From IMG/VR virus record IMGVR_UViG_2695420897_000031: a stretch of 15,003 nucleotides of DNA; one strand, 5' to 3'. Below are positions 1 to 15,003 of this stretch, in pieces. Each line of letters begins with the position of its first letter. Position 1 is the stretch's first letter. The stretch is from a virus. Lineage: Duplodnaviria > Heunggongvirae > Uroviricota > Caudoviricetes. The notes below the pieces were generated by a model that was not told the origin of the DNA, did no database searches, and worked only from the letters and a program-made list of their open reading frames with translations. The position numbers were made by a program, and so were the translations under genes.

Positions 1-483
1 ATGACGAAGAAAAAAGCACATAAACCTGGTTCAGCGACCATCGCGCTTAACAAGCGCGCCCGTCACGAATACTTTATCGAAGAAGAGTTCGAAGCGGGAC
101 TTGCCCTGCAAGGCTGGGAGGTTAAATCCCTGCGCGCAGGAAAAGCCAATATCAGCGACAGCTACGTCCTTCTGCGTGACGGAGAGGCATTTCTGTTTGG
201 CGCTAACATCACGCCAATGGCCGTGGCCTCCACGCATGTGGTGTGCGATCCTACCCGTACCCGCAAGTTACTTCTCAACCAACGCGAACTGGACTCATTG
301 TACGGTCGCGTCAATCGAGAAGGCTATACCGTAGTGGCGCTCTCCCTGTACTGGAAAAATGCCTGGTGCAAAGTGAAAATCGGCGTCGCCAAAGGTAAAA
401 AACAGCACGATAAACGTTCAGATATCAAAGAACGCGAATGGCAGGTGGATAAAGCACGTATCATGAAAAACGCCCACCGTTAA
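1..483 (+). CDS. smpB: SsrA-binding protein SmpB (tmRNA partner in trans-translation)
   Basis: 160-aa ORF that I recognise along its full length as enterobacterial SmpB ([55 protein letters not shown]...KNAHR). It lies immediately upstream of ssrA, as in E. coli. Confidence 0.97.
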
Positions 484-649
484 ACCTGCACTCCAATTAT
501 TGACCAGTTCCTCACCGCGCCTCCCTCTCCGGCGGCGCGAATGAACATCTTATTGGCTATCACATCCGACACAAATGTTGCCATCCCATTGCTTAATCGA
601 ATAAAAATCAGGCTACATGGGTGCTAAATCTTTAACGATAACGCCATTG

Positions 650-690
650 AGGCTGGTCATGGCGCTCATAAATCTGGTATACTTACCTTT
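650..690 (+). promoter_or_regulatory. putative ssrA promoter region (-10-like TATACT at 678-683)
   Basis: TATACT hexamer sits 15-20 nt upstream of the mature tmRNA 5' end at 698, consistent with a short 5' leader on the precursor. I could not place a -35 element confidently. Confidence 0.35.
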
Positions 691-697
691 ACACATT

Positions 698-1060
698 GGG
701 GCTGATTCTGGATTCGACGGGATTTGCGAAACCCAAGGTGCATGCCGAGGGGCGGTTGGCCTCGTAAAAAGCCGCAAAAAATAGTCGCAAACGACGAAAA
801 CTACGCTTTAGCAGCTTAATAACCTGCTTAGAGCCCTCTCTCCCTAGCCTCCGCTCTTAGGACGGGGATCAAGAGAGGTCAAACCCAAAAGAGATCGCGT
901 GGAAGCCCTGCCTGGGGTTGAAGCGTTAAAACTTAATCAGGCTAGTTTGTTAGTGGCGTGTCCGTCCGCAGCTGGCAAGCGAATGTAAAGACTGACTAAG
1001 CATGTAGTACCGAGGATGTAGGAATTTCGGACGCGGGTTCAACTCCCGCCAGCTCCACCA
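698..1060 (+). ncRNA. ssrA: tmRNA (SsrA), 363 nt
   Basis: Starts GGGGCTGATTCTGGATTCGACGGG and ends with the tRNA-like GGTTCAACTCCCGCCAGCTCCACCA. The tag reading frame GCA AAC GAC GAA AAC TAC GCT TTA GCA GCT TAA (ANDENYALAA-stop) is at 787-819. Confidence 0.95.
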
Positions 1061-1188
1061 ATCATGATTGGACGGTGTAAGGACAACACCAACAAAAACA
1101 GGAAGTTAGCAGTCTCAGCAGGACACCGACCAGACGGTGAGGAGACAAAAAAGGATACGCAAAGGAGCCGCGGCTCTCAAGTGTGAAA

Positions 1189-1216
1189 GAAGCCCGCAAA
1201 TTGCGGGCTTTTTTAT
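1189..1216 (+). terminator. rho-independent terminator-like hairpin upstream of ORF1
   Basis: GC-rich inverted repeat AAGCCCGCAA / TTGCGGGCTT followed by TTTTTTATT. It lies about 130 nt downstream of the tmRNA CCA end. Confidence 0.55.
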
Positions 1217-1269
1217 TGATCAGTCAACAATAAACAGTAACCGAATGAGAATTTAATAAGGATATTCAT

Positions 1270-2301
1270 ATGGAAGCTACTGTGGATTCGATTGATTTTC
1301 TGATCCGTAGTGAAGATGATTTTCTAAACTTTCTGGAAGAAATGAAAGCCCGAGAGGGGCTTGATTCTAAAGAGTTTATTTTCCCTAACGTAAAGTTTGC
1401 AGGCTGGCCATCCTTAGACATAAATGTAAAAGGAGAGCGGTATCATTCATCAATTACATCAGCAATGTTGTTTGGTATGTCAATGCTCAACGAGGAGATA
1501 CAGCGGGCGTTTGCAACCATACGATACGGATCGCAGAATCTTCAACGCTTGACTAATGAAGACAAGCAACGACTTGATATAAATTTTAAAATTAGCGAAG
1601 GTTCTAGTGATGCGGAAGGCACCACTGACAAGATCATCAACGCAGTAACTGATTTTTTGCGAGATACTATGTCTGGACTGAACGGCTGGCAGAAAATGCT
1701 TGTTATAATCACAATGGTTGGCGCGGCCAGCACATGTGGTTATCACTACATTTCAGAAAATGCCGTAACAGAAAGACATGCAACTGATCGGCAGGTTGAA
1801 ATTGCAAAAACCACATCCGATGGCATAAACAAAGCCATAGAAGCAACATTAGATTATAAAATCTATGGGAAATCAGCGATTAGCGATAAAGTTACTAGTC
1901 ACGGACAAGCAGGTAAAAGTGCTTTAGTGAAGCAATTAGCTGCTGATCCTACTGTCGAAACCGTGACTTTAGGAAATGAGAAACTAACACGACAAGACCT
2001 AAATACCTACAACAGCCGACAATCTGTAGATAGAGAACGTAAAGAACGAACTGATATATTTTCCATCAAAGGTGTAACCAGAACAGGGCCAACAAATCAG
2101 GATATTAATATTAACGTTGTTAGGGTCTCTAATGACGAATGCTTCACAATCAAAGCTTCAGCTGATGTTATCACCCAAGATGAGTTGACAGCTATTGTTG
2201 ACGCTTTGTCAAACAACTCTCATATTAAAATCAGTTACTTAGAGGTAATTGAAAAGGGTGCTGTTTCTATAGGTCAGTTCAACACTATTGTTTCAGAATA
2301 A
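1270..2301 (+). CDS. hypothetical protein, 343 aa (ORF1); unknown function, with one hydrophobic stretch
   Basis: Long uninterrupted ORF with an AAGGA Shine-Dalgarno 7 nt upstream of the ATG. Markedly AT-rich compared with the flanking pin and baseplate genes (judged by eye). Hydrophobic stretch MLVIITMVGAASTCGYHY at residues 143-160 (nt 1696-1749). No family recognised, no canonical Walker A. Confidence 0.6.
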   Translation: MEATVDSIDFLIRSEDDFLNFLEEMKAREGLDSKEFIFPNVKFAGWPSLDINVKGERYHSSITSAMLFGMSMLNEEIQRAFATIRYGSQNLQRLTNEDKQRLDINFKISEGSSDAEGTTDKIINAVTDFLRDTMSGLNGWQKMLVIITMVGAASTCGYHYISENAVTERHATDRQVEIAKTTSDGINKAIEATLDYKIYGKSAISDKVTSHGQAGKSALVKQLAADPTVETVTLGNEKLTRQDLNTYNSRQSVDRERKERTDIFSIKGVTRTGPTNQDININVVRVSNDECFTIKASADVITQDELTAIVDALSNNSHIKISYLEVIEKGAVSIGQFNTIVSE

Positions 2302-2352
2302 TCACTTAACCCCATTTATGTCGGTTGAGGTTATAAGTCACGGAGACCAGAT

Positions 2353-2697
2353 ATGTCCTTAAAGTATGCACATGAAAAATTTCATACTGCAGTACTTACT
2401 CTTGCGGGCCATGGAAGTATTCAAGAACGCTTGATTAATTCGTATGTTTTTAGCCTTGGGCATCTTAAAACAGCCGATGATATTCCAAATGCCTTACAAA
2501 GCAGGTTCGATGAATTATGTAAGGAACTGACTAAGTTTGATGCCACTGGCGATGAGGGGCGAGTTCAAGCAACAGTATCAAAACTTAACGATTTCGAGAT
2601 CAATAAACTGATCGAAGATATTGTCAGTCTTAACGATGATATTTGCATGAAATTGGCTCTGACGGATGAGACTTACCAAGACATACACCAAAGTTAA
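2353..2697 (+). CDS. hypothetical acidic protein, 114 aa (ORF2); probably co-transcribed with ORF1
   Basis: ORF starts 52 nt after ORF1 on the same strand, with GGAG 6-9 nt upstream of the ATG. AT-rich and D/E-rich. No family recognised. Confidence 0.55.
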   Translation: MSLKYAHEKFHTAVLTLAGHGSIQERLINSYVFSLGHLKTADDIPNALQSRFDELCKELTKFDATGDEGRVQATVSKLNDFEINKLIEDIVSLNDDICMKLALTDETYQDIHQS

Positions 2698-2724
2698 TTG
2701 ATTAAATTCAAAAAGTTAACGTTC

Positions 2725-2747
2725 AACCAGCCAGTTTTTGGCTGGTT
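2725..2747. terminator. hairpin between convergent ORF2 (+) and ORF70 (-), possible bidirectional terminator
   Basis: Perfect 8-bp stem AACCAGCC / GGCTGGTT with a 7-nt T-rich loop, T-rich on both flanks, located between two convergent ORFs. Confidence 0.45.
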
Positions 2748-2781
2748 TATTGTCTTATAATATTCTTGCTCGAATGATGCA

Positions 2782-2994
2782 CTATTTATGATGTAATCCG
2801 GACATCAGTTCATGGACAAGATTATCTCTTTCATTGTGTTGCAACCGTAAATGCATAGCAAAAAGGTGAGCACTATCCTCATTCCTCTTCAAGCCATGCT
2901 GTTCAAGATACCCGAAAAAACGGCTTCTCTTATCCGCTATTTCCTGAGTCTGACGTGCAACATTTACCAAATTTTCTAGCGTTTTTCTTGGCAT
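2782..2994 (-). CDS. hypothetical small protein, 70 aa (ORF70), downstream of pin on the same strand
   Basis: ORF with a strong AGGAGG Shine-Dalgarno 7 nt upstream of the ATG (reverse complement of 2995-3010). No cysteines, no recognised family. Confidence 0.5.
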   Translation of the reverse strand: MPRKTLENLVNVARQTQEIADKRSRFFGYLEQHGLKRNEDSAHLFAMHLRLQHNERDNLVHELMSGLHHK

Positions 2995-3192
2995 ACTATT
3001 TCCTCCTGAAATTGTTGTAATTCACTAGGATATTCATTTTAATTTGTATCATTTAGTACCAAAACCGCTATCAATTAATAAAGCCATCGTTGTGGTTTAC
3101 CTTGCAGCCGTTTTTTGTCATTGACTCTATGTGAAAATAATGAATCATCATGAGATTGGCTCACACGTTCTTGAATTCGACGAGCTGTGTCT

Positions 3193-3747
3193 TTATTTAT
3201 CTCCTGCCGGAAACCTCTGATACAAAGTCGATACGCCAACATCATAGATAATCGCAACTTTCTGGCGCGGAACTCCTGATGCAATTAATCGTCCGGCTTG
3301 TGCCCATTGTTCTGGTGTAAGTTTGGGACGACGTCCACCAATTCGTCCCTGTGCGCGAGCAGCTTCCAGTCCAGCTTTTGTTCGTTCAACAATCAGTTCT
3401 CGTTCCATTTCAGCCAGGGCCCCCATCACATGAAAGAAAAAGCGCCCCATTGGGGTACTGGTATCAATTGAATCCGTCAGACTACGAAAGTTGATGCCTC
3501 GTTCGCGCAACTCCTCCACCAGCACGACAAGATGCCGCATACTGCGCCCCAGTCGGTCCAGTTTCCAGACCACCAGCGTATCGCCTGCCGATAATGTCCT
3601 GAGCAGTTTTTTCAGTCCCGGCCTTTCGGACTTTGTACCGCTTATCTTGTCTTCAAAAATCAGCTCGCATCCTGCACAGTTCAGCGCATTACGTTGTAGA
3701 TCTGTGTTCTGGTCATTTGTTGACACACGTACATAGCCAATAAGCAT
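3193..3747 (-). CDS. pin: serine DNA invertase, Pin/Gin/Cin/Hin family (184 aa)
   Basis: Starts MLIGYVRVSTNDQNTDLQRNALNCAGCE... and continues with VVWKLDRLGRSMRHL and GRFFFHVMGALAEMEREL, which I recognise as the small serine invertase family. Its 5' end abuts a cix-like site and a tail-fibre cassette. The six-frame ORF extends 12 codons upstream (to 3783) but the family start is the internal ATG at 3745-3747, which has a GGGAG RBS. Symbol pin is by analogy with the e14 arrangement, not from exact identity. Confidence 0.9.
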   Translation of the reverse strand: MLIGYVRVSTNDQNTDLQRNALNCAGCELIFEDKISGTKSERPGLKKLLRTLSAGDTLVVWKLDRLGRSMRHLVVLVEELRERGINFRSLTDSIDTSTPMGRFFFHVMGALAEMERELIVERTKAGLEAARAQGRIGGRRPKLTPEQWAQAGRLIASGVPRQKVAIIYDVGVSTLYQRFPAGDK

Positions 3748-3801
3748 GGTAGATCTCCCTGACAAAAGCAGGAATGATGCCATTTGCTCGTTATTTCTGC
3801 A

Positions 3802-3827
3802 TTTTCATAAACGTTGGTTTAAGAGCA
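3802..3827. other. cix-like recombination crossover site, pin-proximal (TTTTCATAAACG TT GGTTTAAGAGCA)
   Basis: 26-bp site with imperfect dyad symmetry around a central TT, resembling gix/cix/hix sites (AAACC-NN-GGTTT core). Sequence identity with the Sc-proximal site at 14085-14110 begins exactly at the central dinucleotide. Confidence 0.7.
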
Positions 3828-4124
3828 AGCGGGCAGTACACCGATAATTTGTTATTTACAGGTCCTGATGGTCTTAAGATTCAGGTGTTTCGCCGGACGC
3901 TCGCAAATTTGACTACTGTCGGTGTAGTAAATTCTGTGCCAGTGACTTTCCCTGTCCCGTTCCCTGTTAATTGCTGGGGCGTTTTTTCTACCAAATTAAC
4001 ATGGGTTCAGATAACTAACTCATGCGAGTGGGTAAGCAATACAGGATTTACCGCTCAGGTCATGATGAATATTGCTGTAAATACAAACACCTCAGACGCT
4101 ATGTTTTTAGCTATAGGATATTAA
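3816..4124 (+). other. tail-fibre variable C-terminal cassette SvA, promoterless copy facing pin (silent orientation)
   Basis: Identical to the C-terminal 103 codons of the tail-fibre CDS at 13808-14407, but here it has no constant N-terminal part. The six-frame ORF 3774..4124 is a read-through from the pin leader and not a real start. Confidence 0.65.
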
Positions 4125-4125
4125 T

Positions 4126-4566
4126 ATGAATCGTTTTGTGTTCAGTCCATCTGAGTCCCGTTTTTATGCCATCGAGTGGCAGGCTGATTATGTTGATAAT
4201 AATTGTTGGCCACATGATGCCATTAACGTTAGTGACAGTATTTATTATGAGTTTTCCGGCACTCCCCCTACAGGTAAGCAACTTATAACTTTAAATAACA
4301 TGCCAGCATGGGGTGATATTCCTCCACCTACACGAGAAGAATTAATTGTCGCTGCTGATGTGGAGAAGCAAAAAAGAATAGATTTAGCCAATGATTACAT
4401 GAACGGTAAGCAATGGCCTGGTAAAGCAGCTATTGGTCGTCTGAAAGGTGGGGAACTGGCACAATATAATTTGTGGCTGGATTATCTGGACGCACTGGAG
4501 CTGGTCGATACCGCCAGTGCGCCAGATATTGAATGGCCTACGCCTCCGGCAGTTCAGGCAAGATGA
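4126..4566 (+). CDS. tail fibre assembly protein (Tfa/Mu-U-like chaperone), variant A
   Basis: 146-aa ORF beginning 2 nt after the SvA stop. Sequence (MNRFVFSPSESRFYAIEWQADY...LWLDYLDALELVDTASAPDIEWP) is typical of the phage Tfa family that pairs with invertible fibre cassettes. Confidence 0.8.
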   Translation: MNRFVFSPSESRFYAIEWQADYVDNNCWPHDAINVSDSIYYEFSGTPPTGKQLITLNNMPAWGDIPPPTREELIVAADVEKQKRIDLANDYMNGKQWPGKAAIGRLKGGELAQYNLWLDYLDALELVDTASAPDIEWPTPPAVQAR

Positions 4567-4736
4567 CATCCGGCGCGGTGCTGGTATCTGTTGCCGTCAC
4601 CGCGTCAATGTAATCCAGCACAGTGTTAAGGCTGGTTGTTTCTGCCTGCGTCAGTTTACGTCCGGCCTGCAATTTCAGCTGAATCAGACTGATTGAAGCC
4701 ATTGCAGCATCAATCAGTGACTGGCGCTGTGCTTCA
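4538..4736 (-). pseudogene. 3' fragment of tail fibre assembly gene tfaB, cut at junction 4736|4737
   Basis: Reverse complement of the 3' end of the complete tfaB at 8924-9526. It differs from the other copies at one base (4708 C versus T, Thr to Ala in the tfaB frame). It ends abruptly where smpB-derived sequence resumes. Confidence 0.6.
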
Positions 4737-5091
4737 CCTGCGCGCAGGAAAAGCCAATATCAGCGACAGCTACGTCCTTCTGCGTGACGGAGAGGCATTT
4801 CTGTTTGGCGCTAACATCACGCCAATGGCCGTGGCCTCCACGCATGTGGTGTGCGATCCTACCCGTACCCGCAAGTTACTTCTCAACCAACGCGAACTGG
4901 ACTCATTGTACGGTCGCGTCAATCGAGAAGGCTATACCGTAGTGGCGCTCTCCCTGTACTGGAAAAATGCCTGGTGCAAAGTGAAAATCGGCGTCGCCAA
5001 AGGTAAAAAACAGCACGATAAACGTTCAGATATCAAAGAACGCGAATGGCAGGTGGATAAAGCACGTATCATGAAAAACGCCCACCGTTAA
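4737..5091 (+). pseudogene. smpB: smpB 3' fragment (lacks the first 128 nt)
   Basis: Identical to smpB 129-483. The six-frame ORF 4693..5091 is an artefactual fusion of tfaB antisense sequence to the smpB frame. Confidence 0.7.
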
Positions 5092-5305
5092 ACCTGCACT
5101 CCAATTATTGACCAGTTCCTCACCGCGCCTCCCTCTCCGGCGGCGCGAATGAACATCTTATTGGCTATCACATCCGACACAAATGTTGCCATCCCATTGC
5201 TTAATCGAATAAAAATCAGGCTACATGGGTGCTAAATCTTTAACGATAACGCCATTGAGGCTGGTCATGGCGCTCATAAATCTGGTATACTTACCTTTAC
5301 ACATT

Positions 5306-5668
5306 GGGGCTGATTCTGGATTCGACGGGATTTGCGAAACCCAAGGTGCATGCCGAGGGGCGGTTGGCCTCGTAAAAAGCCGCAAAAAATAGTCGCAAAC
5401 GACGAAAACTACGCTTTAGCAGCTTAATAACCTGCTTAGAGCCCTCTCTCCCTAGCCTCCGCTCTTAGGACGGGGATCAAGAGAGGTCAAACCCAAAAGA
5501 GATCGCGTGGAAGCCCTGCCTGGGGTTGAAGCGTTAAAACTTAATCAGGCTAGTTTGTTAGTGGCGTGTCCGTCCGCAGCTGGCAAGCGAATGTAAAGAC
5601 TGACTAAGCATGTAGTACCGAGGATGTAGGAATTTCGGACGCGGGTTCAACTCCCGCCAGCTCCACCA
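5306..5668 (+). ncRNA. ssrA: tmRNA (SsrA), second copy
   Basis: Identical to 698-1060 (offset +4608). Confidence 0.9.
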
Positions 5669-5877
5669 ATCATGATTGGACGGTGTAAGGACAACACCAA
5701 CAAAAACAGGAAGTTAGCAGTCTCAGCAGGACACCGACCAGACGGTGAGGAGACAAAAAAGGATACGCAAAGGAGCCGCGGCTCTCAAGTGTGAAAGAAG
5801 CCCGCAAATTGCGGGCTTTTTTATTGATCAGTCAACAATAAACAGTAACCGAATGAGAATTTAATAAGGATATTCAT

Positions 5878-6909
5878 ATGGAAGCTACTGTGGATTCGAT
5901 TGATTTTCTGATCCGTAGTGAAGATGATTTTCTAAACTTTCTGGAAGAAATGAAAGCCCGAGAGGGGCTTGATTCTAAAGAGTTTATTTTCCCTAACGTA
6001 AAGTTTGCAGGCTGGCCATCCTTAGACATAAATGTAAAAGGAGAGCGGTATCATTCATCAATTACATCAGCAATGTTGTTTGGTATGTCAATGCTCAACG
6101 AGGAGATACAGCGGGCGTTTGCAACCATACGATACGGATCGCAGAATCTTCAACGCTTGACTAATGAAGACAAGCAACGACTTGATATAAATTTTAAAAT
6201 TAGCGAAGGTTCTAGTGATGCGGAAGGCACCACTGACAAGATCATCAACGCAGTAACTGATTTTTTGCGAGATACTATGTCTGGACTGAACGGCTGGCAG
6301 AAAATGCTTGTTATAATCACAATGGTTGGCGCGGCCAGCACATGTGGTTATCACTACATTTCAGAAAATGCCGTAACAGAAAGACATGCAACTGATCGGC
6401 AGGTTGAAATTGCAAAAACCACATCCGATGGCATAAACAAAGCCATAGAAGCAACATTAGATTATAAAATCTATGGGAAATCAGCGATTAGCGATAAAGT
6501 TACTAGTCACGGACAAGCAGGTAAAAGTGCTTTAGTGAAGCAATTAGCTGCTGATCCTACTGTCGAAACCGTGACTTTAGGAAATGAGAAACTAACACGA
6601 CAAGACCTAAATACCTACAACAGCCGACAATCTGTAGATAGAGAACGTAAAGAACGAACTGATATATTTTCCATCAAAGGTGTAACCAGAACAGGGCCAA
6701 CAAATCAGGATATTAATATTAACGTTGTTAGGGTCTCTAATGACGAATGCTTCACAATCAAAGCTTCAGCTGATGTTATCACCCAAGATGAGTTGACAGC
6801 TATTGTTGACGCTTTGTCAAACAACTCTCATATTAAAATCAGTTACTTAGAGGTAATTGAAAAGGGTGCTGTTTCTATAGGTCAGTTCAACACTATTGTT
6901 TCAGAATAA
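5878..6909 (+). CDS. hypothetical protein, 343 aa (ORF1, second copy)
   Basis: Identical translation to 1270-2301. Confidence 0.6.
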   Translation: MEATVDSIDFLIRSEDDFLNFLEEMKAREGLDSKEFIFPNVKFAGWPSLDINVKGERYHSSITSAMLFGMSMLNEEIQRAFATIRYGSQNLQRLTNEDKQRLDINFKISEGSSDAEGTTDKIINAVTDFLRDTMSGLNGWQKMLVIITMVGAASTCGYHYISENAVTERHATDRQVEIAKTTSDGINKAIEATLDYKIYGKSAISDKVTSHGQAGKSALVKQLAADPTVETVTLGNEKLTRQDLNTYNSRQSVDRERKERTDIFSIKGVTRTGPTNQDININVVRVSNDECFTIKASADVITQDELTAIVDALSNNSHIKISYLEVIEKGAVSIGQFNTIVSE

Positions 6910-6960
6910 TCACTTAACCCCATTTATGTCGGTTGAGGTTATAAGTCACGGAGACCAGAT

Positions 6961-7305
6961 ATGTCCTTAAAGTATGCACATGAAAAATTTCATACTGCAG
7001 TACTTACTCTTGCGGGCCATGGAAGTATTCAAGAACGCTTGATTAATTCGTATGTTTTTAGCCTTGGGCATCTTAAAACAGCCGATGATATTCCAAATGC
7101 CTTACAAAGCAGGTTCGATGAATTATGTAAGGAACTGACTAAGTTTGATGCCACTGGCGATGAGGGGCGAGTTCAAGCAACAGTATCAAAACTTAACGAT
7201 TTCGAGATCAATAAACTGATCGAAGATATTGTCAGTCTTAACGATGATATTTGCATGAAATTGGCTCTGACGGATGAGACTTACCAAGACATACACCAAA
7301 GTTAA
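6961..7305 (+). CDS. hypothetical acidic protein, 114 aa (ORF2, second copy)
   Basis: Identical translation to 2353-2697. Confidence 0.55.
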   Translation: MSLKYAHEKFHTAVLTLAGHGSIQERLINSYVFSLGHLKTADDIPNALQSRFDELCKELTKFDATGDEGRVQATVSKLNDFEINKLIEDIVSLNDDICMKLALTDETYQDIHQS

Positions 7306-7389
7306 TTGATTAAATTCAAAAAGTTAACGTTCAACCAGCCAGTTTTTGGCTGGTTTATTGTCTTATAATATTCTTGCTCGAATGATGCA

Positions 7390-7602
7390 CTATTTATGAT
7401 GTAATCCGGACATCAGTTCATGGACAAGATTATCTCTTTCATTGTGTTGCAACCGTAAATGCATAGCAAAAAGGTGAGCACTATCCTCATTCCTCTTCAA
7501 GCCATGCTGTTCAAGATACCCGAAAAAACGGCTTCTCTTATCCGCTATTTCCTGAGTCTGACGTGCAACATTTACCAAATTTTCTAGCGTTTTTCTTGGC
7601 AT
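7390..7602 (-). CDS. hypothetical small protein, 70 aa (ORF70, second copy)
   Basis: Identical translation to 2782-2994. Confidence 0.5.
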   Translation of the reverse strand: MPRKTLENLVNVARQTQEIADKRSRFFGYLEQHGLKRNEDSAHLFAMHLRLQHNERDNLVHELMSGLHHK

Positions 7603-7800
7603 ACTATTTCCTCCTGAAATTGTTGTAATTCACTAGGATATTCATTTTAATTTGTATCATTTAGTACCAAAACCGCTATCAATTAATAAAGCCATCGTTG
7701 TGGTTTACCTTGCAGCCGTTTTTTGTCATTGACTCTATGTGAAAATAATGAATCATCATGAGATTGGCTCACACGTTCTTGAATTCGACGAGCTGTGTCT

Positions 7801-8355
7801 TTATTTATCTCCTGCCGGAAACCTCTGATACAAAGTCGATACGCCAACATCATAGATAATCGCAACTTTCTGGCGCGGAACTCCTGATGCAATTAATCGT
7901 CCGGCTTGTGCCCATTGTTCTGGTGTAAGTTTGGGACGACGTCCACCAATTCGTCCCTGTGCGCGAGCAGCTTCCAGTCCAGCTTTTGTTCGTTCAACAA
8001 TCAGTTCTCGTTCCATTTCAGCCAGGGCCCCCATCACATGAAAGAAAAAGCGCCCCATTGGGGTACTGGTATCAATTGAATCCGTCAGACTACGAAAGTT
8101 GATGCCTCGTTCGCGCAACTCCTCCACCAGCACGACAAGATGCCGCATACTGCGCCCCAGTCGGTCCAGTTTCCAGACCACCAGCGTATCGCCTGCCGAT
8201 AATGTCCTGAGCAGTTTTTTCAGTCCCGGCCTTTCGGACTTTGTACCGCTTATCTTGTCTTCAAAAATCAGCTCGCATCCTGCACAGTTCAGCGCATTAC
8301 GTTGTAGATCTGTGTTCTGGTCATTTGTTGACACACGTACATAGCCAATAAGCAT
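7801..8355 (-). CDS. pin: serine DNA invertase, Pin/Gin/Cin/Hin family (second copy)
   Basis: Identical to 3193-3747 (offset +4608). Confidence 0.9.
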   Translation of the reverse strand: MLIGYVRVSTNDQNTDLQRNALNCAGCELIFEDKISGTKSERPGLKKLLRTLSAGDTLVVWKLDRLGRSMRHLVVLVEELRERGINFRSLTDSIDTSTPMGRFFFHVMGALAEMERELIVERTKAGLEAARAQGRIGGRRPKLTPEQWAQAGRLIASGVPRQKVAIIYDVGVSTLYQRFPAGDK

Positions 8356-8409
8356 GGTAGATCTCCCTGACAAAAGCAGGAATGATGCCATTTGCTCGTT
8401 ATTTCTGCA

Positions 8410-8435
8410 TTTTCATAAACGTTGGTTTGGGAGAA
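8410..8435. other. cix-like crossover site, pin-proximal, second copy (TTTTCATAAACG TT GGTTTGGGAGAA)
   Basis: Left half and central TT are the same as at 3802-3815. The right half belongs to the SvB cassette instead of SvA. Confidence 0.7.
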
Positions 8436-8924
8436 GGCTCTGCATTACCTGTTGGTGTGCCTGTTCCGTGGCCTTCCGCCACTCCGCCGACAGGCTGGCT
8501 GAAATGCAACGGTGCCGCTTTTTCTGCTGAAGAATACCCGGAACTGGCAAAGGCTTATCCGACAAATAAATTGCCTGATTTACGTGGTGAGTTTATTCGT
8601 GGCTGGGATGACGGGCGTGGTATTGATGCTGTACGTGCCTTGCTAAGTCTTCAGAATGGAGGAGTGGAATCACACACCCACCAAGGGCAGCTCTTCAGAG
8701 TTAGTGATTATCGTACAAAAGAAATACCAGCATCAGAAGTTATGGGAAGAGGATATATTGCAAGCCTGACGCCGGGTGCTGATAGCCCACTTGATTTTGA
8801 TGATTATTATGTATCTTCTAATCCAAATGGATATTTTGTCGGGAATCAGAGAACAACAGCATATGGGATAAATGAAACCCGTCCACGGAATATTGCATTT
8901 AACTATATCGTGAGGGCTGCATAA
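8424..8924 (+). other. tail-fibre variable C-terminal cassette SvB (silent orientation, facing away from pin)
   Basis: Encodes ...LKCNGAAFSAEEYPELAKAYPTNKLPDLRGEFIRGWDDGRGID...ETRPRNIAFNYIVRAA, which resembles the receptor-binding C-terminal domain common to enterobacterial phage side tail fibres. The frame is continuous with the crossover site, so inversion would fuse it to the constant N-terminus. Confidence 0.7.
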
Positions 8925-9526
8925 TGGATAACGCTGTATTAAATAGCGAGTTTATTGCTACAAAGGCGGGGAATATTACCGTCTATAACTATGATGGCGA
9001 AACACGGGAATATATTTCCACATCAACTGAATATCTTGCCGTTGGTGTCGGTATCCCTGCATATTCCTGTTTAGATGCCCCTGGCACATACAAAGCTGGT
9101 TATGCAATCTGCCGATCTGTAGATTTTAACTCATGGGAATATGTGCCAGACCATCGCGGTGAAATCGTCTTTAGCACCGAAACAGGAGAATCAAAAGAAA
9201 TCACAGCTCCGGGTGATTACCCTGATAATACAACCACTATCGCCCCGTTAACGCCATACGATAAATGGGATGGTGAGAAATGGGTGACGGATACCGAAGC
9301 ACAGCATAGCGCCGCAGTAGATGCAGCAGAAGCACAGCGCCAGTCACTGATTGATACTGCAATGGCTTCAATCAGTCTGATTCAGCTGAAATTGCAGGCC
9401 GGACGTAAACTGACGCAGGCAGAAACAACCAGCCTTAACACTGTGCTGGATTACATTGACGCGGTGACGGCAACAGATACCAGCACCGCGCCGGATGTCA
9501 TCTTGCCTGAACTGCCGGAGGCGTAG
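8924..9526 (+). CDS. tail fibre assembly protein (Tfa family), variant B
   Basis: 200-aa ORF whose ATG overlaps the SvB stop by 1 nt. Its C-terminal region (...LDYIDAVTATDTSTAPDVILPELP) parallels the C-terminus of tfaA. Confidence 0.75.
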   Translation: MDNAVLNSEFIATKAGNITVYNYDGETREYISTSTEYLAVGVGIPAYSCLDAPGTYKAGYAICRSVDFNSWEYVPDHRGEIVFSTETGESKEITAPGDYPDNTTTIAPLTPYDKWDGEKWVTDTEAQHSAAVDAAEAQRQSLIDTAMASISLIQLKLQAGRKLTQAETTSLNTVLDYIDAVTATDTSTAPDVILPELPEA

Positions 9527-9938
9527 GCCATTCAATATCTGGCGCACTGGCGGTATCGACCAGCTCCAGTGCGTCCAGATAATCCAGCCACAAATTATAT
9601 TGTGCCAGTTCCCCACCTTTCAGACGACCAATAGCTGCTTTACCAGGCCATTGCTTACCGTTCATGTAATCATTGGCTAAATCTATTCTTTTTTGCTTCT
9701 CCACATCAGCAGCGACAATTAATTCTTCTCGTGTAGGTGGAGGAATATCACCCCATGCTGGCATGTTATTTAAAGTTATAAGTTGCTTACCTGTAGGGGG
9801 AGTGCCGGAAAACTCATAATAAATACTGTCACTAACGTTAATGGCATCATGTGGCCAACAATTATTATCAACATAATCAGCCTGCCACTCGATGGCATAA
9901 AAACGGGACTCAGATGGACTGAACACAAAACGATTCAT
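9498..9938 (-). CDS. tail fibre assembly protein, variant A (inverted copy)
   Basis: Identical translation to 4126-4566. Its 3' end overlaps tfaB by 29 bp in convergent orientation. Confidence 0.8.
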   Translation of the reverse strand: MNRFVFSPSESRFYAIEWQADYVDNNCWPHDAINVSDSIYYEFSGTPPTGKQLITLNNMPAWGDIPPPTREELIVAADVEKQKRIDLANDYMNGKQWPGKAAIGRLKGGELAQYNLWLDYLDALELVDTASAPDIEWPTPPAVQAR

Positions 9939-9939
9939 A

Positions 9940-10248
9940 TTAATATCCTATAGCTAAAAACATAGCGTCTGAGGTGTTTGTATTTACAGCAATATTCATC
10001 ATGACCTGAGCGGTAAATCCTGTATTGCTTACCCACTCGCATGAGTTAGTTATCTGAACCCATGTTAATTTGGTAGAAAAAACGCCCCAGCAATTAACAG
10101 GGAACGGGACAGGGAAAGTCACTGGCACAGAATTTACTACACCGACAGTAGTCAAATTTGCGAGCGTCCGGCGAAACACCTGAATCTTAAGACCATCAGG
10201 ACCTGTAAATAACAAATTATCGGTGTACTGCCCGCTTGCTCTTAAACC
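9940..10248 (-). other. tail-fibre variable cassette SvA (inverted copy), ending at a cix half-site
   Basis: Reverse complement of 3816-4124. Here it is not preceded by the constant fibre N-terminus; it meets gp44-like sequence instead. Confidence 0.65.
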
Positions 10249-10250
10249 AA
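10237..10250. other. cix half-site plus central AA, ending exactly at the non-canonical junction 10250|10251
   Basis: TGCTCTTAAACC AA matches the reverse complement of the cix right half and centre. The expected partner half (GGTTTTCGAGA, as at 14085-14096 in reverse) is replaced by ATGGCCGGGAGA. Confidence 0.6.
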
Positions 10251-10251
10251 A

Positions 10252-11211
10252 TGGCCGGGAGATGAGGGTATCACCACGCTTCAGCCGCGCATTAAAAACG
10301 GTTCAAAAGTGGAAGTGCTGATTGGTGATGAGCTGGTGATCACCGGCTGGGTGGAGGCGACTCCCGTTCGTTACGATGCCCGTTCGGTCAGCACCGGTAT
10401 TGCCGGACGTAGTCTGACGGCTGACCTGATTGACTGTGCAGCCGAACCGACACAGTTTAACGGACGCTCGCTGGTGCAGATTGCGCAGGCGCTTGCTGCG
10501 CCTTTCGGCATTGAGGTGGTGAACAGCGGTGCGCCATCGGGTGTTATTCCTGATGTTCAGCCTGATCACGGTGAAACGGTGATTGAGGTAATCAACAAAA
10601 TACTCGGTCAGCAGCAGGCGCTGGCTTACGACGACCCGCACGGTAGGCTGGTGATTGGTGGTATTGGCTCAACGCGGGCACATACCGCGCTGGTACTTGG
10701 GGAAAACATCCTTTCCTGTGATACGGAGAAGAGTATCCGGGAGCGGTTTTCTGTTTACCAGGTGGCGGGGCAGCGTGCCGGAAACGACGATGATTTCGGT
10801 GAGGCCACCACCACCGCGCTGCGGGCCCGCACAGAGGACGCATTTATTGCCCGTTACCGTCCGATGTATATCAGGCAGACAGGGCAGGCTACGGGGGCAG
10901 GCTGTATTGCCCGTGCGGACTTTGAAGCCCGACAACGGGCGGCGCGGACGGATGAAACCACCTATGTGGTGCAGGGCTGGCGACAGGGTAACGGTACGCT
11001 GTGGCAGCCCAACCAGCGGGTGATTGTCTTCGATCCGGTCTGTGGTTTCGACAATACCGAACTGCTTGTCTCGGAAGTCACGTTTACTCAGGACCAGAAC
11101 GGCACCCTGACGGAAATCCGTGTCGGCCCGCCTGATGCTTATCTGCCTGAACCCGAAGCTCCCGGCGCGCGGAAAAAGAAAAAAGCCAGAGTACAGGAGG
11201 ACCCGTTCTGA
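10252..11211 (+). pseudogene. 5'-truncated Mu gp44 (P) / P2 gpD-like baseplate or tail protein
   Basis: Reading frame is open from the junction (WPGDEGITTLQPRIKNGSKVEVLIGDE...) with no start codon or RBS in a sensible position. Family assignment rests on gene order, size and GC-rich phage-like composition. The stop overlaps the next start (TGATG). Confidence 0.5.
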
Positions 11212-11759
11212 TGAGGACGATTGAAGCCATGCAGCGACAACTTCTCGGCCTGATTGGGCGGGCAGTGGTGAAAAGCATCAGTGCCGCCACGAAATGCCAG
11301 ACCGTGGATGTGTCCCTGATTGCCGGTGAACCCAAAGCCGGGGTTGAACATCTTGAACCCTACGGTTTTACCGCAAGGGCAAACAGCGGTGCGGAAGCGG
11401 TGGTGTTGTTTCCGGATGGCGACCGTTCTCATGCGGTGGTTGTTACGGTGTCGGACCGGCGCTACCGCCTGAAAGGGCTGCAGACGGGTGAGGTGGCTGT
11501 CTATGACGATCAGGGGCAGTCCGTGACGCTGACCCGGGAGGGGATCGTGGTGGACGGTGCAGGTAAAACGATCACGTTTCGCAATTCACCTAAAGCACGT
11601 TTTGAAATGGACCTGGAAGTGACCGGACAGGTGAAAGACCTGTGCGACTCCGGCGGCACCACCATGTCAGCGATGCGGCTTGCCTATAACGGGCATCGTC
11701 ACAGAGAGAACGGTCAGGGCAGTAACACCGACAAACCTGATAAAGCGATGGAGGCATGA
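11211..11759 (+). CDS. baseplate assembly protein V / Mu gp45-like spike (182 aa)
   Basis: Contains ...PYGFTARANSGAEAVVLFPDGDRSHAVVVTVSDRRYRLKGLQTGEVAVYDDQGQSVTL... and a DSGGTT motif, which I recognise as the Mu gp45 / P2 gpV family. Translationally coupled to neighbours. Confidence 0.7.
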   Translation: MRTIEAMQRQLLGLIGRAVVKSISAATKCQTVDVSLIAGEPKAGVEHLEPYGFTARANSGAEAVVLFPDGDRSHAVVVTVSDRRYRLKGLQTGEVAVYDDQGQSVTLTREGIVVDGAGKTITFRNSPKARFEMDLEVTGQVKDLCDSGGTTMSAMRLAYNGHRHRENGQGSNTDKPDKAMEA

Positions 11760-12184
11760 TGGAACTGTGGCTGACGGTGAGCGGTAAACGCACCTGCGCC
11801 AGCGCACCGCTGGATCCGCTGACCCGCGCCGTGGTGATTTCCCTGTTTACCTGGCGGCGGGCGGAGCCTGATGACAACGCCGACGTCCCGATGGGATGGT
11901 GGGGGGATACCTGGCCTGCGGTACAGAATGACCGTTACGGCTCCCGACTGTGGCTGCTTCAGCGCAGCAAACTGACCAATCAGCTGGTGCAGACGGTAAG
12001 GGGGTATATCCGCGAATGCCTGCAATGGATGATTGATGACGGCGTGGTGTCCCGTATTGATCTGGATATCCGCCGTACCGGGATTAATGAACTGGGTAAC
12101 AGTATCACTCTCTGGCGTCGTGACGGACCGGTAATGATTTCTTTTGATGATCTGTGGAGTGCGATAACGCATGGCGGACAGTGA
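11756..12184 (+). CDS. Mu gp46-like baseplate protein (142 aa)
   Basis: Small ORF overlapping its neighbours by 4 and 14 nt, in the position of gp46 in Mu-like tail modules. Confidence 0.5.
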   Translation: MMELWLTVSGKRTCASAPLDPLTRAVVISLFTWRRAEPDDNADVPMGWWGDTWPAVQNDRYGSRLWLLQRSKLTNQLVQTVRGYIRECLQWMIDDGVVSRIDLDIRRTGINELGNSITLWRRDGPVMISFDDLWSAITHGGQ

Positions 12185-13229
12185 ATTTCAGCGCCCGACG
12201 CTGGCAGAAAATATCAGTATGCTCCGTAACGATTTATTCGCCAGGCTGGACGTCAGCAACACGCTCCGGCGCATGGATGAAGACGTGCGGGCAAAGGTGT
12301 ATGCGGCGGCGCTGCATACGGTCTACGGGTACATCGATTATCTGGCAATGAATATGCTGCCTGACCTGTGCGATGAGTCCTGGCTGGCGCGACATGCTGC
12401 GATGAAACGGTGTCCGCGCAAGGGGGCCACGGCTGCCAGCGGGTATATGCGCTGGGAAGGTGTCAGCGATGGCCTGAAGGTGACTGCCGGGAGCGTGATT
12501 CAGCGCGATGACCTGGTTCAGTACACGGCAACTGCCGATGCAACCAGCTCCGGTGGTGTCCTGCGTGTGCCGATCACTTGCTCAACTACAGGCGCGGTCG
12601 GTAACGCTGACGACGGTACGGCATTAATCCTGGTCACGCCGGTGAATGGTCTGCCGTCTTCCGGTGTTGCAGATACCCTGACTGGCGGATTCGATACTGA
12701 AGATCTGGAAACGTGGCGCGCCCGCGTCATTGAGCGGTATTACTGGACGCCGCAGGGCGGGGCTGACGGGGACTATGTCGTCTGGGCTAAAGAAGTGCCC
12801 GGCATTACCCGCGCATGGACATACCGTCACTGGATGGGAACGGGAACTGTCGGTGTGATGATTGCCAGCAGTGACCTGATTAATCCCATTCCGGAAGAAT
12901 CAACGGAAACGGCGGCAAGACAACATATCGGGCCACTGGCCCCGGTGGCAGGCTCTGATTTGTATGTATTCAGGCCGGTGGCACATAAAGTGGATTTTCA
13001 TATCCGCGTGACGCCGGATACACCGGAAATACGGGCTGCCATCACCGCGGAGTTGCGTTCGTTCCTGCTGCGTGATGGTTATCCGCAGGGAGAACTGAAG
13101 GTGTCGCGTATCAGTGAGGCGATTTCCGGTGCGAACGGGGAATACAGCCATCAGTTGCTTGCACCGGCAGACAATATCTCCATTGCAAAAAATGAACTGG
13201 CGGTTCTGGGGACGATTTCATGGACGTGA
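12171..13229 (+). CDS. baseplate J-like protein (Mu gp47 / P2 gpJ family, 352 aa)
   Basis: Size, position between gp46-like and gp48-like genes, and overall sequence character are consistent with baseplate J. Confidence 0.6.
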
Positions 13230-13804
13230 CAAACGATGATTACATCCGTCTGTTGTCTGCACTGTTGCCCCCCGGTCCGGCGTGGTCAGCCAGCGATCCG
13301 GCGATTGCCGGTTCGGCACCGTCATTAACCCGCGTTCATCAGCGTGCGGATGCCCTGATGCGGGAGCTGGATCCGCGCACCACCACCGAACTGATAAACC
13401 GCTGGGAGCGTCTGTGCGGCCTGCCGGATGAATGTATTCCCGCAGGGACACAGACCCTTCGCCAGCGTCAGCAACGACTGGATGCGAAGGTTAACCTGGC
13501 GGGCGGCATCAATGAGGATTTTTACCTTGCACAGCTTGCTGCCCTGGGCAGACCAGACGCTACCATCACGCGATACGACAAAAGCACGTTCACCTGCTCA
13601 TCAGCCTGCACTGACGCTGTGAATGCGCCGGAATGGCGGTATTACTGGCAGGTCAACATGCCAGCCGCCACCAACACCACCTGGATGACATGTGGCGATC
13701 CCTGTGATTCCGCACTGCGTATCTGGGGCGACACCGTTGTCGAGTGTGTGCTTAACAAACTCTGCCCGTCGCATACCTACGTAATTTTTAAATATCCGGA
13801 GTAA
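13220..13804 (+). CDS. Mu gp48-like tail protein (P2 gpI-like, 194 aa)
   Basis: Position immediately upstream of the tail-fibre gene, overlapping the baseplate J-like gene by 10 nt. Confidence 0.5.
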
Positions 13805-13807
13805 TTC

Positions 13808-14407
13808 ATGCATCGTATAGACACGAAAACCGCGCAGAAGGATAAGTTCGGCGCGGGTAAGAACGGTTTTACCCGTGGTAACCCCCAGACCGGCACACCT
13901 GCCACCGATCTGGATGATGACTACTTTGACATGTTGCAGGAGGAGCTTTGCAGCGTTGTGGAGGCCTCCGGTGCCAGCCTGGAGAAAGGGCGGCACGACC
14001 AGTTGCTTACCGCGCTTCGTGCGCTGCTGTTAAGCCGCAAAAATCCGTTTGGCGATATCAAATCGGACGGCACGGTGAAAACGGCTCTCGAAAACCTTGG
14101 TTTAAGAGCAAGCGGGCAGTACACCGATAATTTGTTATTTACAGGTCCTGATGGTCTTAAGATTCAGGTGTTTCGCCGGACGCTCGCAAATTTGACTACT
14201 GTCGGTGTAGTAAATTCTGTGCCAGTGACTTTCCCTGTCCCGTTCCCTGTTAATTGCTGGGGCGTTTTTTCTACCAAATTAACATGGGTTCAGATAACTA
14301 ACTCATGCGAGTGGGTAAGCAATACAGGATTTACCGCTCAGGTCATGATGAATATTGCTGTAAATACAAACACCTCAGACGCTATGTTTTTAGCTATAGG
14401 ATATTAA
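13808..14407 (+). CDS. short side tail fibre protein: constant N-terminus (Sc) fused to variable cassette SvA (199 aa)
   Basis: N-terminus [75 protein letters not shown] is a widely conserved enterobacterial prophage tail-fibre N-terminus. The cix site at 14085-14110 lies inside the CDS at the Sc/Sv boundary, as in Mu S and e14 fibres. Confidence 0.8.
14085..14110. other. cix-like crossover site, Sc-proximal (TCTCGAAAACC TT GGTTTAAGAGCA), inside the tail-fibre CDS
   Basis: Same right half and central TT as 3802-3827, with a different left half. Both halves contain the AAACC/GGTTT core. Confidence 0.7.
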
Positions 14408-14408
14408 T

Positions 14409-14849
14409 ATGAATCGTTTTGTGTTCAGTCCATCTGAGTCCCGTTTTTATGCCATCGAGTGGCAGGCTGATTATGTTGATAATAATTGTTGGCCACATGA
14501 TGCCATTAACGTTAGTGACAGTATTTATTATGAGTTTTCCGGCACTCCCCCTACAGGTAAGCAACTTATAACTTTAAATAACATGCCAGCATGGGGTGAT
14601 ATTCCTCCACCTACACGAGAAGAATTAATTGTCGCTGCTGATGTGGAGAAGCAAAAAAGAATAGATTTAGCCAATGATTACATGAACGGTAAGCAATGGC
14701 CTGGTAAAGCAGCTATTGGTCGTCTGAAAGGTGGGGAACTGGCACAATATAATTTGTGGCTGGATTATCTGGACGCACTGGAGCTGGTCGATACCGCCAG
14801 TGCGCCAGATATTGAATGGCCTACGCCTCCGGCAGTTCAGGCAAGATGA
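14409..14849 (+). CDS. tail fibre assembly protein, variant A (expressed orientation, downstream of Sc-SvA)
   Basis: Identical translation to 4126-4566. Confidence 0.8.
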   Translation: MNRFVFSPSESRFYAIEWQADYVDNNCWPHDAINVSDSIYYEFSGTPPTGKQLITLNNMPAWGDIPPPTREELIVAADVEKQKRIDLANDYMNGKQWPGKAAIGRLKGGELAQYNLWLDYLDALELVDTASAPDIEWPTPPAVQAR

Positions 14850-15003
14850 CATCCGGCGCGGTGCTGGTATCTGTTGCCGTCACCGCGTCAATGTAATCCA
14901 GCACAGTGTTAAGGCTGGTTGTTTCTGCCTGCGTCAGTTTACGTCCGGCCTGCAATTTCAGCTGAATCAGACTGATTGAAGCCATTGCAGTATCAATCAG
15001 TGA
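14821..15003 (-). CDS. tail fibre assembly protein variant B, 3' portion (runs off the window end)
   Basis: Reverse complement of the 3' end of tfaB (8924-9526). Carries T at the position where the copy at 4708 has C. Confidence 0.6.
   Translation of the reverse strand, partial: SLIDTAMASISLIQLKLQAGRKLTQAETTSLNTVLDYIDAVTATDTSTAPDVILPELPEA

Follow-up and report, generated by a model that had tools for sequence, protein, structure and literature searches.

Three open reading frames lie between the tmRNA gene ssrA and the serine invertase gene pinE of a prophage element found in E. coli and Salmonella, and their setting raises the question of whether they work together against other phages. The window analysed here, i.e. 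the whole 15,003-nt stretch from the IMG/VR virus record IMGVR_UViG_2695420897_000031 (Caudoviricetes), had been read in a preliminary description as carrying an undescribed accessory or defence system, made up of a two-gene operon and a convergent small gene. These are referred to below by their lengths in amino acids as ORF343, ORF114 and ORF70. All three are placed as in that description (Table 1), and a Shine-Dalgarno sequence precedes each start by 7-9 nt (AAGGA for ORF343, GGAG for ORF114 and AGGAGG for ORF70). The block is also AT-rich in comparison with its neighbours: its GC content is 0.365-0.43 over positions 1201-3200, while pin has 0.50-0.525 and the baseplate genes have 0.54-0.61. 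The stretch from a hairpin at 1190-1217 to the ATG of ORF343 showed no sigma-70-like promoter, and an Rfam scan of positions 1-5200 returned the tmRNA only. Positions 129-3820 are repeated at 4737-8428 with 100% identity, a repeat that the preliminary description does not mention, and the window therefore holds the three-ORF block two times, with copy 2 at 5878-7602. The slot between ssrA and pin is a genuine cargo position of the prophage, and the earlier view of the three genes as horizontally acquired cargo of no recognisable family was borne out by scans of Pfam, NCBIfam, PADLOC and PHROGs.

Table 1. Features of the duplicated block, numbered from the first letter of the window
Feature	Position	Strand	Remarks
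ssrA (tmRNA)	698-1060
ORF343, copy 1 (RefSeq WP_021530618)	1270-2301	+	343 aa; ORF with ribosome-binding site
ORF343 N-terminal domain, residues 1-135	1270-1674	+	Predicted cytoplasmic; no signal peptide
ORF343 predicted single transmembrane helix, residues 143-161	1696-1752	+	Hydropathy peak
ORF343 C-terminal OB-fold domain, residues 255-343	2032-2298	+	From structure model
ORF114, copy 1 (WP_000054185)	2353-2697	+	114 aa; 51 nt 3' of ORF343
Hairpin terminator common to the convergent ORF114 and ORF70	2725-2747		10-bp stem, then T-run
ORF70, copy 1 (WP_001137529)	2782-2994	-	70 aa; downstream of pinE in the same direction
pinE serine invertase, copy 1	3193-3747	-	RefSeq annotation in locus L001; Resolvase and HTH_7 domains
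ORF343, copy 2	5878-6909	+	Identical to copy 1
ORF114, copy 2	6961-7305	+
ORF70, copy 2	7390-7602	-
pinE, copy 2	7801-8355	-

In those scans the sole match of any of the three proteins was that of ORF343 to phrog_6191, over its full length (E 7e-38). PHROG 6191 has no annotation, and membership gives no functional information. At E <=1, none of the three proteins matched any of the 5027 defence protein models in PADLOC-DB 2.0.0. The family around ORF343 comprises 76 clusters at 90% identity and 833 at 50% identity, with a range covering Enterobacterales, Pseudomonas, Pseudoalteromonas and Moraxella phages. Given hundreds of homologues and a dN/dS of 0.07 at its C-terminus, ORF343 is more than a chance reading frame. 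Frameshifted copies occur at three loci (L023, L035 and L069) and could reflect either errors in sequencing or true decay. The viral contigs were scanned for the family with one alignment (A1); a second (A2), without a conserved stretch, holds 97 diverse members. Those 97 had no Pfam match and gave only two stray single hits in PADLOC. Profile searches of the PDB with A1 and A2 likewise yielded insignificant matches only, including those to MotB and PBP, which fall on the hydrophobic stretch and the residues beside it. Homology to housekeeping or phage structural proteins, which the preliminary description had named as a ground for refuting its own proposal, was found for none of the ORFs. Judged from sequence comparison, the ORF343 family is large, widespread, unannotated and without detectable relatives among known systems. 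We found no characterisation in the literature on ORF343 or PHROG 6191; a relative may have been tested by Brenes and Laub (2025, Cell Host Microbe).

The proteins of this family share a simple layout. Each of the 97 diverse members has one hydrophobic segment only, as had been noted for ORF343. In ORF343 itself the segment is of borderline hydrophobicity (KD19 peak of 1.41 at residues 143-161), with values of 1.6-2.2 in 26 homologues; by hydropathy, a peak is found at the aligned position in 96 of the 97 diverse members and is at least 1.6 in 70 of them. The net charge of the flanks favours an N-in orientation in 25 of 27 close members, and among distant members by 55 for to 30 against. From this charge bias and the lack of a signal peptide, which are the basis for the topology, we infer that the N-terminus lies in the cytoplasm and the C-terminus in the periplasm.

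The predicted cytoplasmic domain, residues 1-135, is the most conserved part of ORF343, and the C-terminal half the most variable: across the 97 diverse members the mean information is 1.87 bits in the former and 1.36 in the latter, with identities of 29% and 13-16%, respectively. The only nearly invariant positions are G55, L94, G111 and M137. No polar residue is invariant across these 97 members, which favours a role in binding rather than in catalysis. AlphaFold2 modelled the N-terminal domain with a pLDDT of ~40-70 and residues 150-202 with a confidence below 50. The protein has a coiled coil, and long helices at residues 165-225 precede the C-terminal domain. The latter (residues 255-343) was modelled with confidence as a barrel of five strands, the third and fourth of which are joined by a helix, i.e. 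an OB-fold. A structure search with this model found generic OB-folds only, likening it to SilF and to the B subunits of AB5 toxins.

One homologue, in phage PhiR12, carries the annotation T2SS GspM-like. The bitopic layout of ORF343, in which a transmembrane helix is followed by a helical stalk and a small C-terminal domain, does resemble GspM, but the annotation could not be reproduced. Neither the PhiR12 protein nor any of the 97 family members matched the Pfam GspM families. Moreover, the modelled C-terminal domain is an OB-fold, where that of GspM has a ferredoxin-like fold, and the N-terminal domain of 135 aa is absent from GspM.

The preliminary description had linked the block to ssrA and pin. 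In the window ORF343 does lie beside these genes and not next to a cI gene, but the family is not specific to these two neighbours, and a position just 3' of cI in lambdoid phages is commoner for it. At 19 of 40 IMG/VR viral loci a homologue lies directly 3' of a cI-type repressor gene on the same strand, and the same is true of phages phi458 and PhiR12_1-5, with a gap of 25 nt in the phi458 type. These cI-linked homologues, which include two with 66-72% identity to the ORF343 of the window (L034 and L060), lie upstream of N where N is recognisable, and at least five different repressor types adjoin them. This is the slot that rexA-rexB occupies downstream of cI in lambda, in the P_RM operon. 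Elsewhere a copy opens the prophage as its first gene, next to an attachment site at tmRNA in E. coli, Mangrovibacter and locus L036, at tRNA-Pro in Serratia and Enterobacter, or at icd in L007, where it lies between icd and int. In L057-L061 the homologue is found at the contig end with the same opposite-strand ORF of ~375 aa. In ~60 loci no recurrent downstream partner of the homologues was seen. ORF343 is stand-alone cargo that travels alone.

How, then, should the two small genes beside it be regarded? ORF114 is acidic (pI 4.9), as had been reported, with an all-helical AlphaFold2 model of pLDDT 52, and ORF70 is a basic helical protein (pI 9.4). ORF114 had no match in phages and ORF70 was absent from phage records. 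The former is represented by only six near-identical clusters, at least one of them a frameshifted copy, and the latter by three clusters, all at least 95% identical. Of the apparent ORF114 homologues at 84-86% identity, some came down to a near-identical copy with a frameshift (L069) and the rest to a single true variant (L070). Both genes are restricted to one E. coli/Salmonella element, as lineage-specific orphans. In the variant L070 the ORF343-ORF114 pair is kept at a dS of 0.25-0.49, a related but diverged hairpin stands in the same place as the terminator, and ORF70 is replaced by an SRAP-like gene. The comparison with L070 gives ORF114 a dN/dS of 0.15 at a dS of 0.49, so that it is more than a chance ORF and is under purifying selection. 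For ORF70 the divergence is too small to allow such a test.

That ORF343 and ORF114, with or without ORF70, make up a lineage-specific system of two or three components is improbable, although several of these observations would suit it. ORF114, which might be a modulator, an antitoxin or a specificity factor, follows ORF343 closely with its own ribosome-binding site and is itself followed by a terminator; it gives a low dN/dS, and the pair persists in the diverged variant despite the replacement of ORF70. The order pin-ORF70-ORF114-ORF343 is constant wherever ORF70 occurs, and the block is intact across thousands of samples. However, the element is nearly clonal (at least 98% identity, in 46 of 5426 genomes), and co-occurrence inside it says nothing on functional linkage. 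Neither small gene has relatives beyond the element, whereas 833 family clusters do without ORF114 and the other ~60 loci offer no recurrent partner. Mangrovibacter and Citrobacter relatives of ORF343, at 81% and 47% identity, abut pin directly without ORF114 or ORF70. We read the small genes as insertions between ORF343 and pin; they are not conserved partners. It is very unlikely, on the other hand, that they are non-functional leftovers at a decaying prophage end. This might be thought above all of ORF70, which was lost in L070 and has no divergent homologue for a selection test, and neither small ORF matched any family. But its ribosome-binding site is the consensus at the right spacing, its sequence is 100% conserved across thousands of samples and annotated in RefSeq, and ORF114 passes the selection test. 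The proposal of an undescribed defence system survives in part: ORF343, with its predicted membrane helix, is a credible candidate for an anti-phage or exclusion protein, but neither the three genes nor the ORF343-ORF114 pair is a conserved system, and the pair, far from being maintained as a unit across genomes, recurs only in the close variant L070.

What might ORF343 do on its own? The chances are about even that it is a membrane protein acting alone, produced in lysogens and serving to exclude other phages or to defend against them, a reading based mainly on genomic position. The positions adjacent to cI and to att, the solitary gene and the architecture of its product support this role, as does an independent prediction. 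Table S10 of the DefensePredictor study (Science 2026, PMC13092281) lists a cluster, WP_021530618.1, which has the accession of ORF343, with a mean log-odds of 6.86, where the strict cut-off is 4, and the label 'Putative novel defense gene'. In those tables of the study that were available, the cluster does not appear among the tested units; of the predicted units that were cloned, 45% were validated. The entry is a machine-learning prediction, partly context-based, and it comes there with no architecture, context analysis or mechanism.

A non-defence role is less probable than exclusion but still merits some weight. ORF343 could be an accessory protein expressed in lysogens as an envelope conversion or fitness factor, or as a regulator of the prophage's own lysis-lysogeny decision. 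The slots by att, by cI and in tail modules house non-defence genes in known phages as well, bor and lom of lambda being examples of such cargo. An extracytoplasmic OB-fold resembles periplasmic proteins that bind sugars or metals, e.g. SilF, as well as AB5-toxin B subunits, and ORF343 has no enzymatic domain of the defence type. Against this, in the characterised cases a gene directly 3' of cI serves exclusion or defence, as with rexAB and BstA; the BstA gene lies next to the repressor gene. A variable C-terminus combined with a conserved N-terminus fits the pattern of an arms race, and DefensePredictor scores ORF343 as defensive. A tail-associated structural or assembly role is extremely unlikely. 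A few copies do lie within tail modules (L015-L017 in Klebsiella, and L064, between DUF6246 and the tape-measure gene), and tail-fibre genes are neighbours of ORF343 in the window. The tail-module copies, however, look like inserted cargo, with the next ORF on the opposite strand, and the majority of copies sit next to cI, int or att, at a distance from structural genes and in many cases on the strand opposite to the late operon. In addition, most related phages have no homologue, and a transmembrane helix is atypical of virion proteins.

If ORF343 is taken as an exclusion or defence protein, lambda RexA/RexB offers the closest positional likeness: the lambdoid relatives occupy the same slot, directly 3' of cI, co-directional with it and 5' of N, they are presumably expressed in the lysogen, and a membrane component is included. 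Homology was rejected, as the hhalign probability of the A2 profile was 0.4% against RexA and 0.3% against RexB, and there was no PADLOC match. The organisation is also different. RexA/RexB has two components, a sensor and a membrane channel, and brings about abortive exclusion of T4 rII and other phages; ORF343 is one protein, predicted to have a single transmembrane helix next to large soluble domains, and RexB by contrast is small and crosses the membrane several times. A putative likeness of another kind is offered by SieA of P22, a prophage-encoded inner-membrane protein for which a single gene suffices and which acts on the DNA-delivery conduit of the incoming phage (PMC10883804). Here too homology was rejected, with an hhalign probability of 0.2% for SieA and of 9% for SieB, in which the hydrophobic helix alone aligns. 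SieA has 164 aa, against 343 aa in ORF343 with its predicted large cytoplasmic domain and OB-fold. A mechanism of the SieA type is nevertheless the one that we hold most likely for ORF343.

The exclusion reading can be set out as follows. ORF343 would cross the inner membrane once, with a conserved N-terminal domain of ~135 aa in the cytoplasm, while on the periplasmic side the helix would lead into a coiled-coil stalk and then a variable OB-fold. The protein would be made in the lysogen, in lambdoid relatives from the repressor transcript in the manner of lambda rexAB. In the window its gene comes first in a prophage that has a Mu-like tail, carries pin and lies at the ssrA attachment site. 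Its most likely job would be to protect the lysogen from other phages, more likely by hindering, at the inner membrane and without enzymatic action, the genome-delivery apparatus of an incoming phage (superinfection exclusion), and less likely by a membrane-triggered abortive response. A bolder extension, which we put forward tentatively and hold to be rather less than evenly probable, is that the family is a new and widespread class of single-protein anti-phage factors, which takes the place of RexAB in the repressor operons of many lambdoid phages and in other settings is carried at the ends of prophages. The variable periplasmic OB-fold would then recognise a component of the injection machinery and the conserved cytoplasmic domain would block genome entry or trigger abortion, amounting to transmembrane sensing of an infection by a single polypeptide.

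For future work, cloning experiments would be misdirected if ORF343, ORF114 and ORF70 were treated as one system. Should ORF343 prove to be an exclusion or defence protein, it would add a family of more than 800 clusters at 50% identity, without detectable kin among known systems, and this family occupies what in lambdoid phages is the most classical "immunity" position. With its bitopic layout and outward OB-fold, the protein would then be a tractable model for the interception of phages at the inner membrane by lysogens, with escape mutants as a guide to its target. Part of the prophage-mediated resistance in carrier E. coli strains would also be explained, which would matter for phage therapy panels.

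Between ssrA and pinE, the three AT-rich open reading frames ORF343, ORF114 and ORF70 were re-found at the positions and on the strands given in the preliminary description. Each is preceded by a Shine-Dalgarno sequence, in keeping with the good ribosome-binding sites noted there, and the lower GC content of the block was borne out, at 0.37-0.43 against 0.50-0.61 for pin and the baseplate genes. ORF343 does have a single hydrophobic stretch, with its sole peak at residues 143-161, and ORF114 is indeed small and acidic (predicted pI 4.9); ORF70 is basic (predicted pI 9.4). No promoter was evident upstream of ORF343 on inspection of the sequence in the window context. The 160 nt 3' of ssrA (1061-1220), which contain a strong hairpin and T-run (1190-1217), show ~89% conservation across 4170 of 5426 E. 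coli genomes irrespective of the island downstream, so the cargo starts at about 1221 and not at the end of ssrA.

Coordinates of features in and around the three-ORF block
Feature	Position	Strand	Remark
smpB	1-483		start of window; the whole window is E. coli DNA
ssrA (tmRNA)	698-1060		
ORF343 (WP_021530618)	1270-2301	+	
ORF114	2353-2697	+	
hairpin terminator	2725-2747		between convergent ORF114 and ORF70
ORF70	2782-2994	-	
pinE	3193-3747	-	followed by invertible tail-fibre segment
second copy of three-ORF block	5878-7602		in repeat 4737-8428
hix/pix-like crossover site	3805-3830		…AAACNTTGGTTT…
hix/pix-like crossover site	8413-8438		…AAACNTTGGTTT…
hix/pix-like crossover site	10238-10263	-	…AAACNTTGGTTT…
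hix/pix-like crossover site	14085-14110		…AAACNTTGGTTT…

The block had been described as belonging to no recognisable family, and for ORF343 this held: its only match is a full-length one to PHROG 6191, of unknown function (E 7e-38), with zero matches in scans of Pfam, NCBIfam and PADLOC. Homologues form 76 clusters at 90% identity in the Enterobacterales, and a profile search returned 833 clusters at 50% identity, 479 of them with E <=1e-10; no Pfam or PADLOC domain was found in 97 diverse members. The proposal of a two- or three-gene system did not survive this comparison. A Mangrovibacter relative (81% identity), likewise at smpB-ssrA, and a Citrobacter relative (47% identity) have pin directly next and carry neither ORF114 nor ORF70, and no recurrent co-directional gene was found 3' of the homologues across ~60 loci. 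The small ORFs are local: ORF114 forms six clusters, every one near-identical or a frameshift artefact, ORF70 forms three, and neither had a match among 50,697 phage records. Conservation across genomes, by which the preliminary description had proposed to judge the gene pair, was not seen for ORF343 with ORF114 or ORF70. In the one genuine variant (locus L070), the ORF343-ORF114 pair is retained at dS 0.25-0.49, with dN/dS of 0.15 for ORF114 and 0.07 for the C-terminus of ORF343. By this ratio and the restricted distribution, ORF114 is a real gene, yet a lineage-specific addition. After the pair in L070, a SRAP/YedK-like gene (896-1276; MCGRFAQ…) replaces ORF70, of which only the last ~30 nt of the 3' end remain. 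From these comparisons, ORF343 is the conserved unit, one that moves on its own.

In complete E. coli genomes, the usual order is smpB, ssrA, hyp343 (WP_021530618), hyp114, hyp70 (-), pinE (-) and the invertible segment; beyond this, a Mu-like-tailed prophage that reads towards pin has its tail fibre and baseplate genes (-). Of 5426 complete genomes, 46 carry the full 2.1-kb block, and across thousands of sequencing samples its order is invariably pin-ORF70-ORF114-ORF343. The block is one nearly clonal element, with identity of at least 98%, and co-occurrence of the three genes is therefore uninformative on functional linkage. One IMG/VR contig (L032) has pin-ORF70 twice in inverted orientation and is thus palindromic; in L027 the block adjoins fbaA-pgk-epd, without tail genes; and ORF343 is split by frameshifts in L023, L035 and L069, possibly through decay or sequencing error.

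Within the window, 129-3820 is repeated at 4737-8428 with 100% identity, a 3.7-kb block comprising the 3' part of smpB, ssrA, ORF343, ORF114, ORF70 and pin. The segment order is (smpB 5' end)-A-B-A-C-B'-D-B. Here D (10251-14096), the baseplate segment, has the opposite orientation to that in normal genomes and lies between inverted repeats of 928 bp (9323-10250 and 14097-15003); at its left end a baseplate gene is cut short, encoding 300 aa where the reference has 359 aa. The arrangement of the window can be read as a 10.3-kb tandem duplication followed by an invertase-mediated deletion in the first copy, or as an artefact of assembly at the invertible repeats. The crossover site at 3805-3830 exactly combines the left half of the site at 8413-8438 with the right half of that at 14085-14110, the expected product of invertase recombination between two hix-like sites. 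The junction at 4736/4737 is a novel joint linking DNA downstream of tfa (tail-fibre assembly) to smpB nucleotide 129, and neither this junction nor at least 80% of the window was found in any of the 5426 complete E. coli genomes.

Beyond this locus, members of the family are found next to the repressor. Phages phi458 (46% identity) and PhiR12_1-5 (26%) carry the homologue directly 3' of cI on the same strand, with a gap of 25 nt in the phi458 type, and in PhiR12 it is also just upstream of N. The same arrangement was seen in 19 of 40 loci in an IMG/VR scan. Their repressors are of five or more distinct types, including LexA-like S24+HTH and lambda-cI-like proteins, and the relatives encoded at two of these loci (L034, L060) share 66-72% identity with the window protein. 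By their position, the cI-adjacent homologues are predicted to be expressed in the lysogen. Elsewhere, the homologue is the first gene inside a prophage, adjoining tmRNA (E. coli, Mangrovibacter, L036) or tRNA-Pro(GGG) (Serratia L004, Enterobacter L012), or between icd and a lambda-type integrase (L007); in L057-L061 the homologue is at the contig end with the same opposite-strand ORF of ~375 aa. A few copies are in tail modules ahead of the tape-measure gene (L015-L017, L064). The cI-adjacent, prophage-end and tail-module sites are classical positions of accessory cargo. Adjoining the homologue in Enterobacter L014 is an inverted duplication (9797-15250) that includes an ISL3 transposase, a 79-aa ORF, an S24 peptidase and a SopB_HTH protein.

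In 96 of 97 diverse members a hydrophobic segment, the sole one per protein, falls at the same place in the alignment. Its KD19 is at least 1.6 in 70 of the 97 and a borderline 1.41 in the window ORF343. Flank net charge points to N-in for 25 of the 27 close members, and by 55 to 30 among distant ones; no signal peptide was found in ORF343. On these grounds we take the protein to be probably bitopic, the N-domain lying in the cytoplasm and the coiled coil and OB-fold predicted to face outward. Conservation is highest in the N-domain (1.87 bits vs 1.36) and the C-terminal half is the most variable; only G55, L94, G111 and M137 are near-invariant across the superfamily. No catalytic signature is apparent in the superfamily, which speaks for a binding or steric action.

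The cI-adjacent homologues occupy precisely the rexA-rexB position of lambda, whereas profile-profile probabilities were 0.4% for RexA and 0.3% for RexB. Those for the exclusion proteins SieA of P22 and SieB were 0.2% and 9%, the latter aligning the hydrophobic helix alone; ORF343 belongs to neither the Rex nor the Sie families. The "T2SS GspM" label of the PhiR12 homologue was unsupported by Pfam or fold comparison. Table S10 of the DefensePredictor study, covering 3,000 E. coli strains (Science 2026, PMC13092281), lists WP_021530618.1, the accession of ORF343, as a cluster_id in its uncharacterised-cluster sheet, labelled "Putative novel defense gene" and without homology or Foldseek hit. 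The mean log-odds of the cluster is 6.86 (range 5.17-8.95; strict cut-off 4), and its top-scoring member is WP_001272876.1, of 348 aa (PMC13092281). In that study 45% of the predicted units cloned gave phage protection, and this cluster was not found in its tables of cloned and tested units (PMC13092281). The family is thus already flagged computationally as putative defence and remains uncharacterised.

The earlier reading of the block as candidate defence or accessory cargo therefore holds in part: it stays plausible for ORF343 and falls for a multi-gene system. What argues for it is the recurrence of the family at cI-adjacent and att-adjacent positions, and not the ssrA-pin slot. That ORF343 would act by blocking genome entry is a tentative and rather doubtful prediction; that it is a prophage-encoded exclusion or defence protein, for which it is a good candidate, we put at about an even chance.
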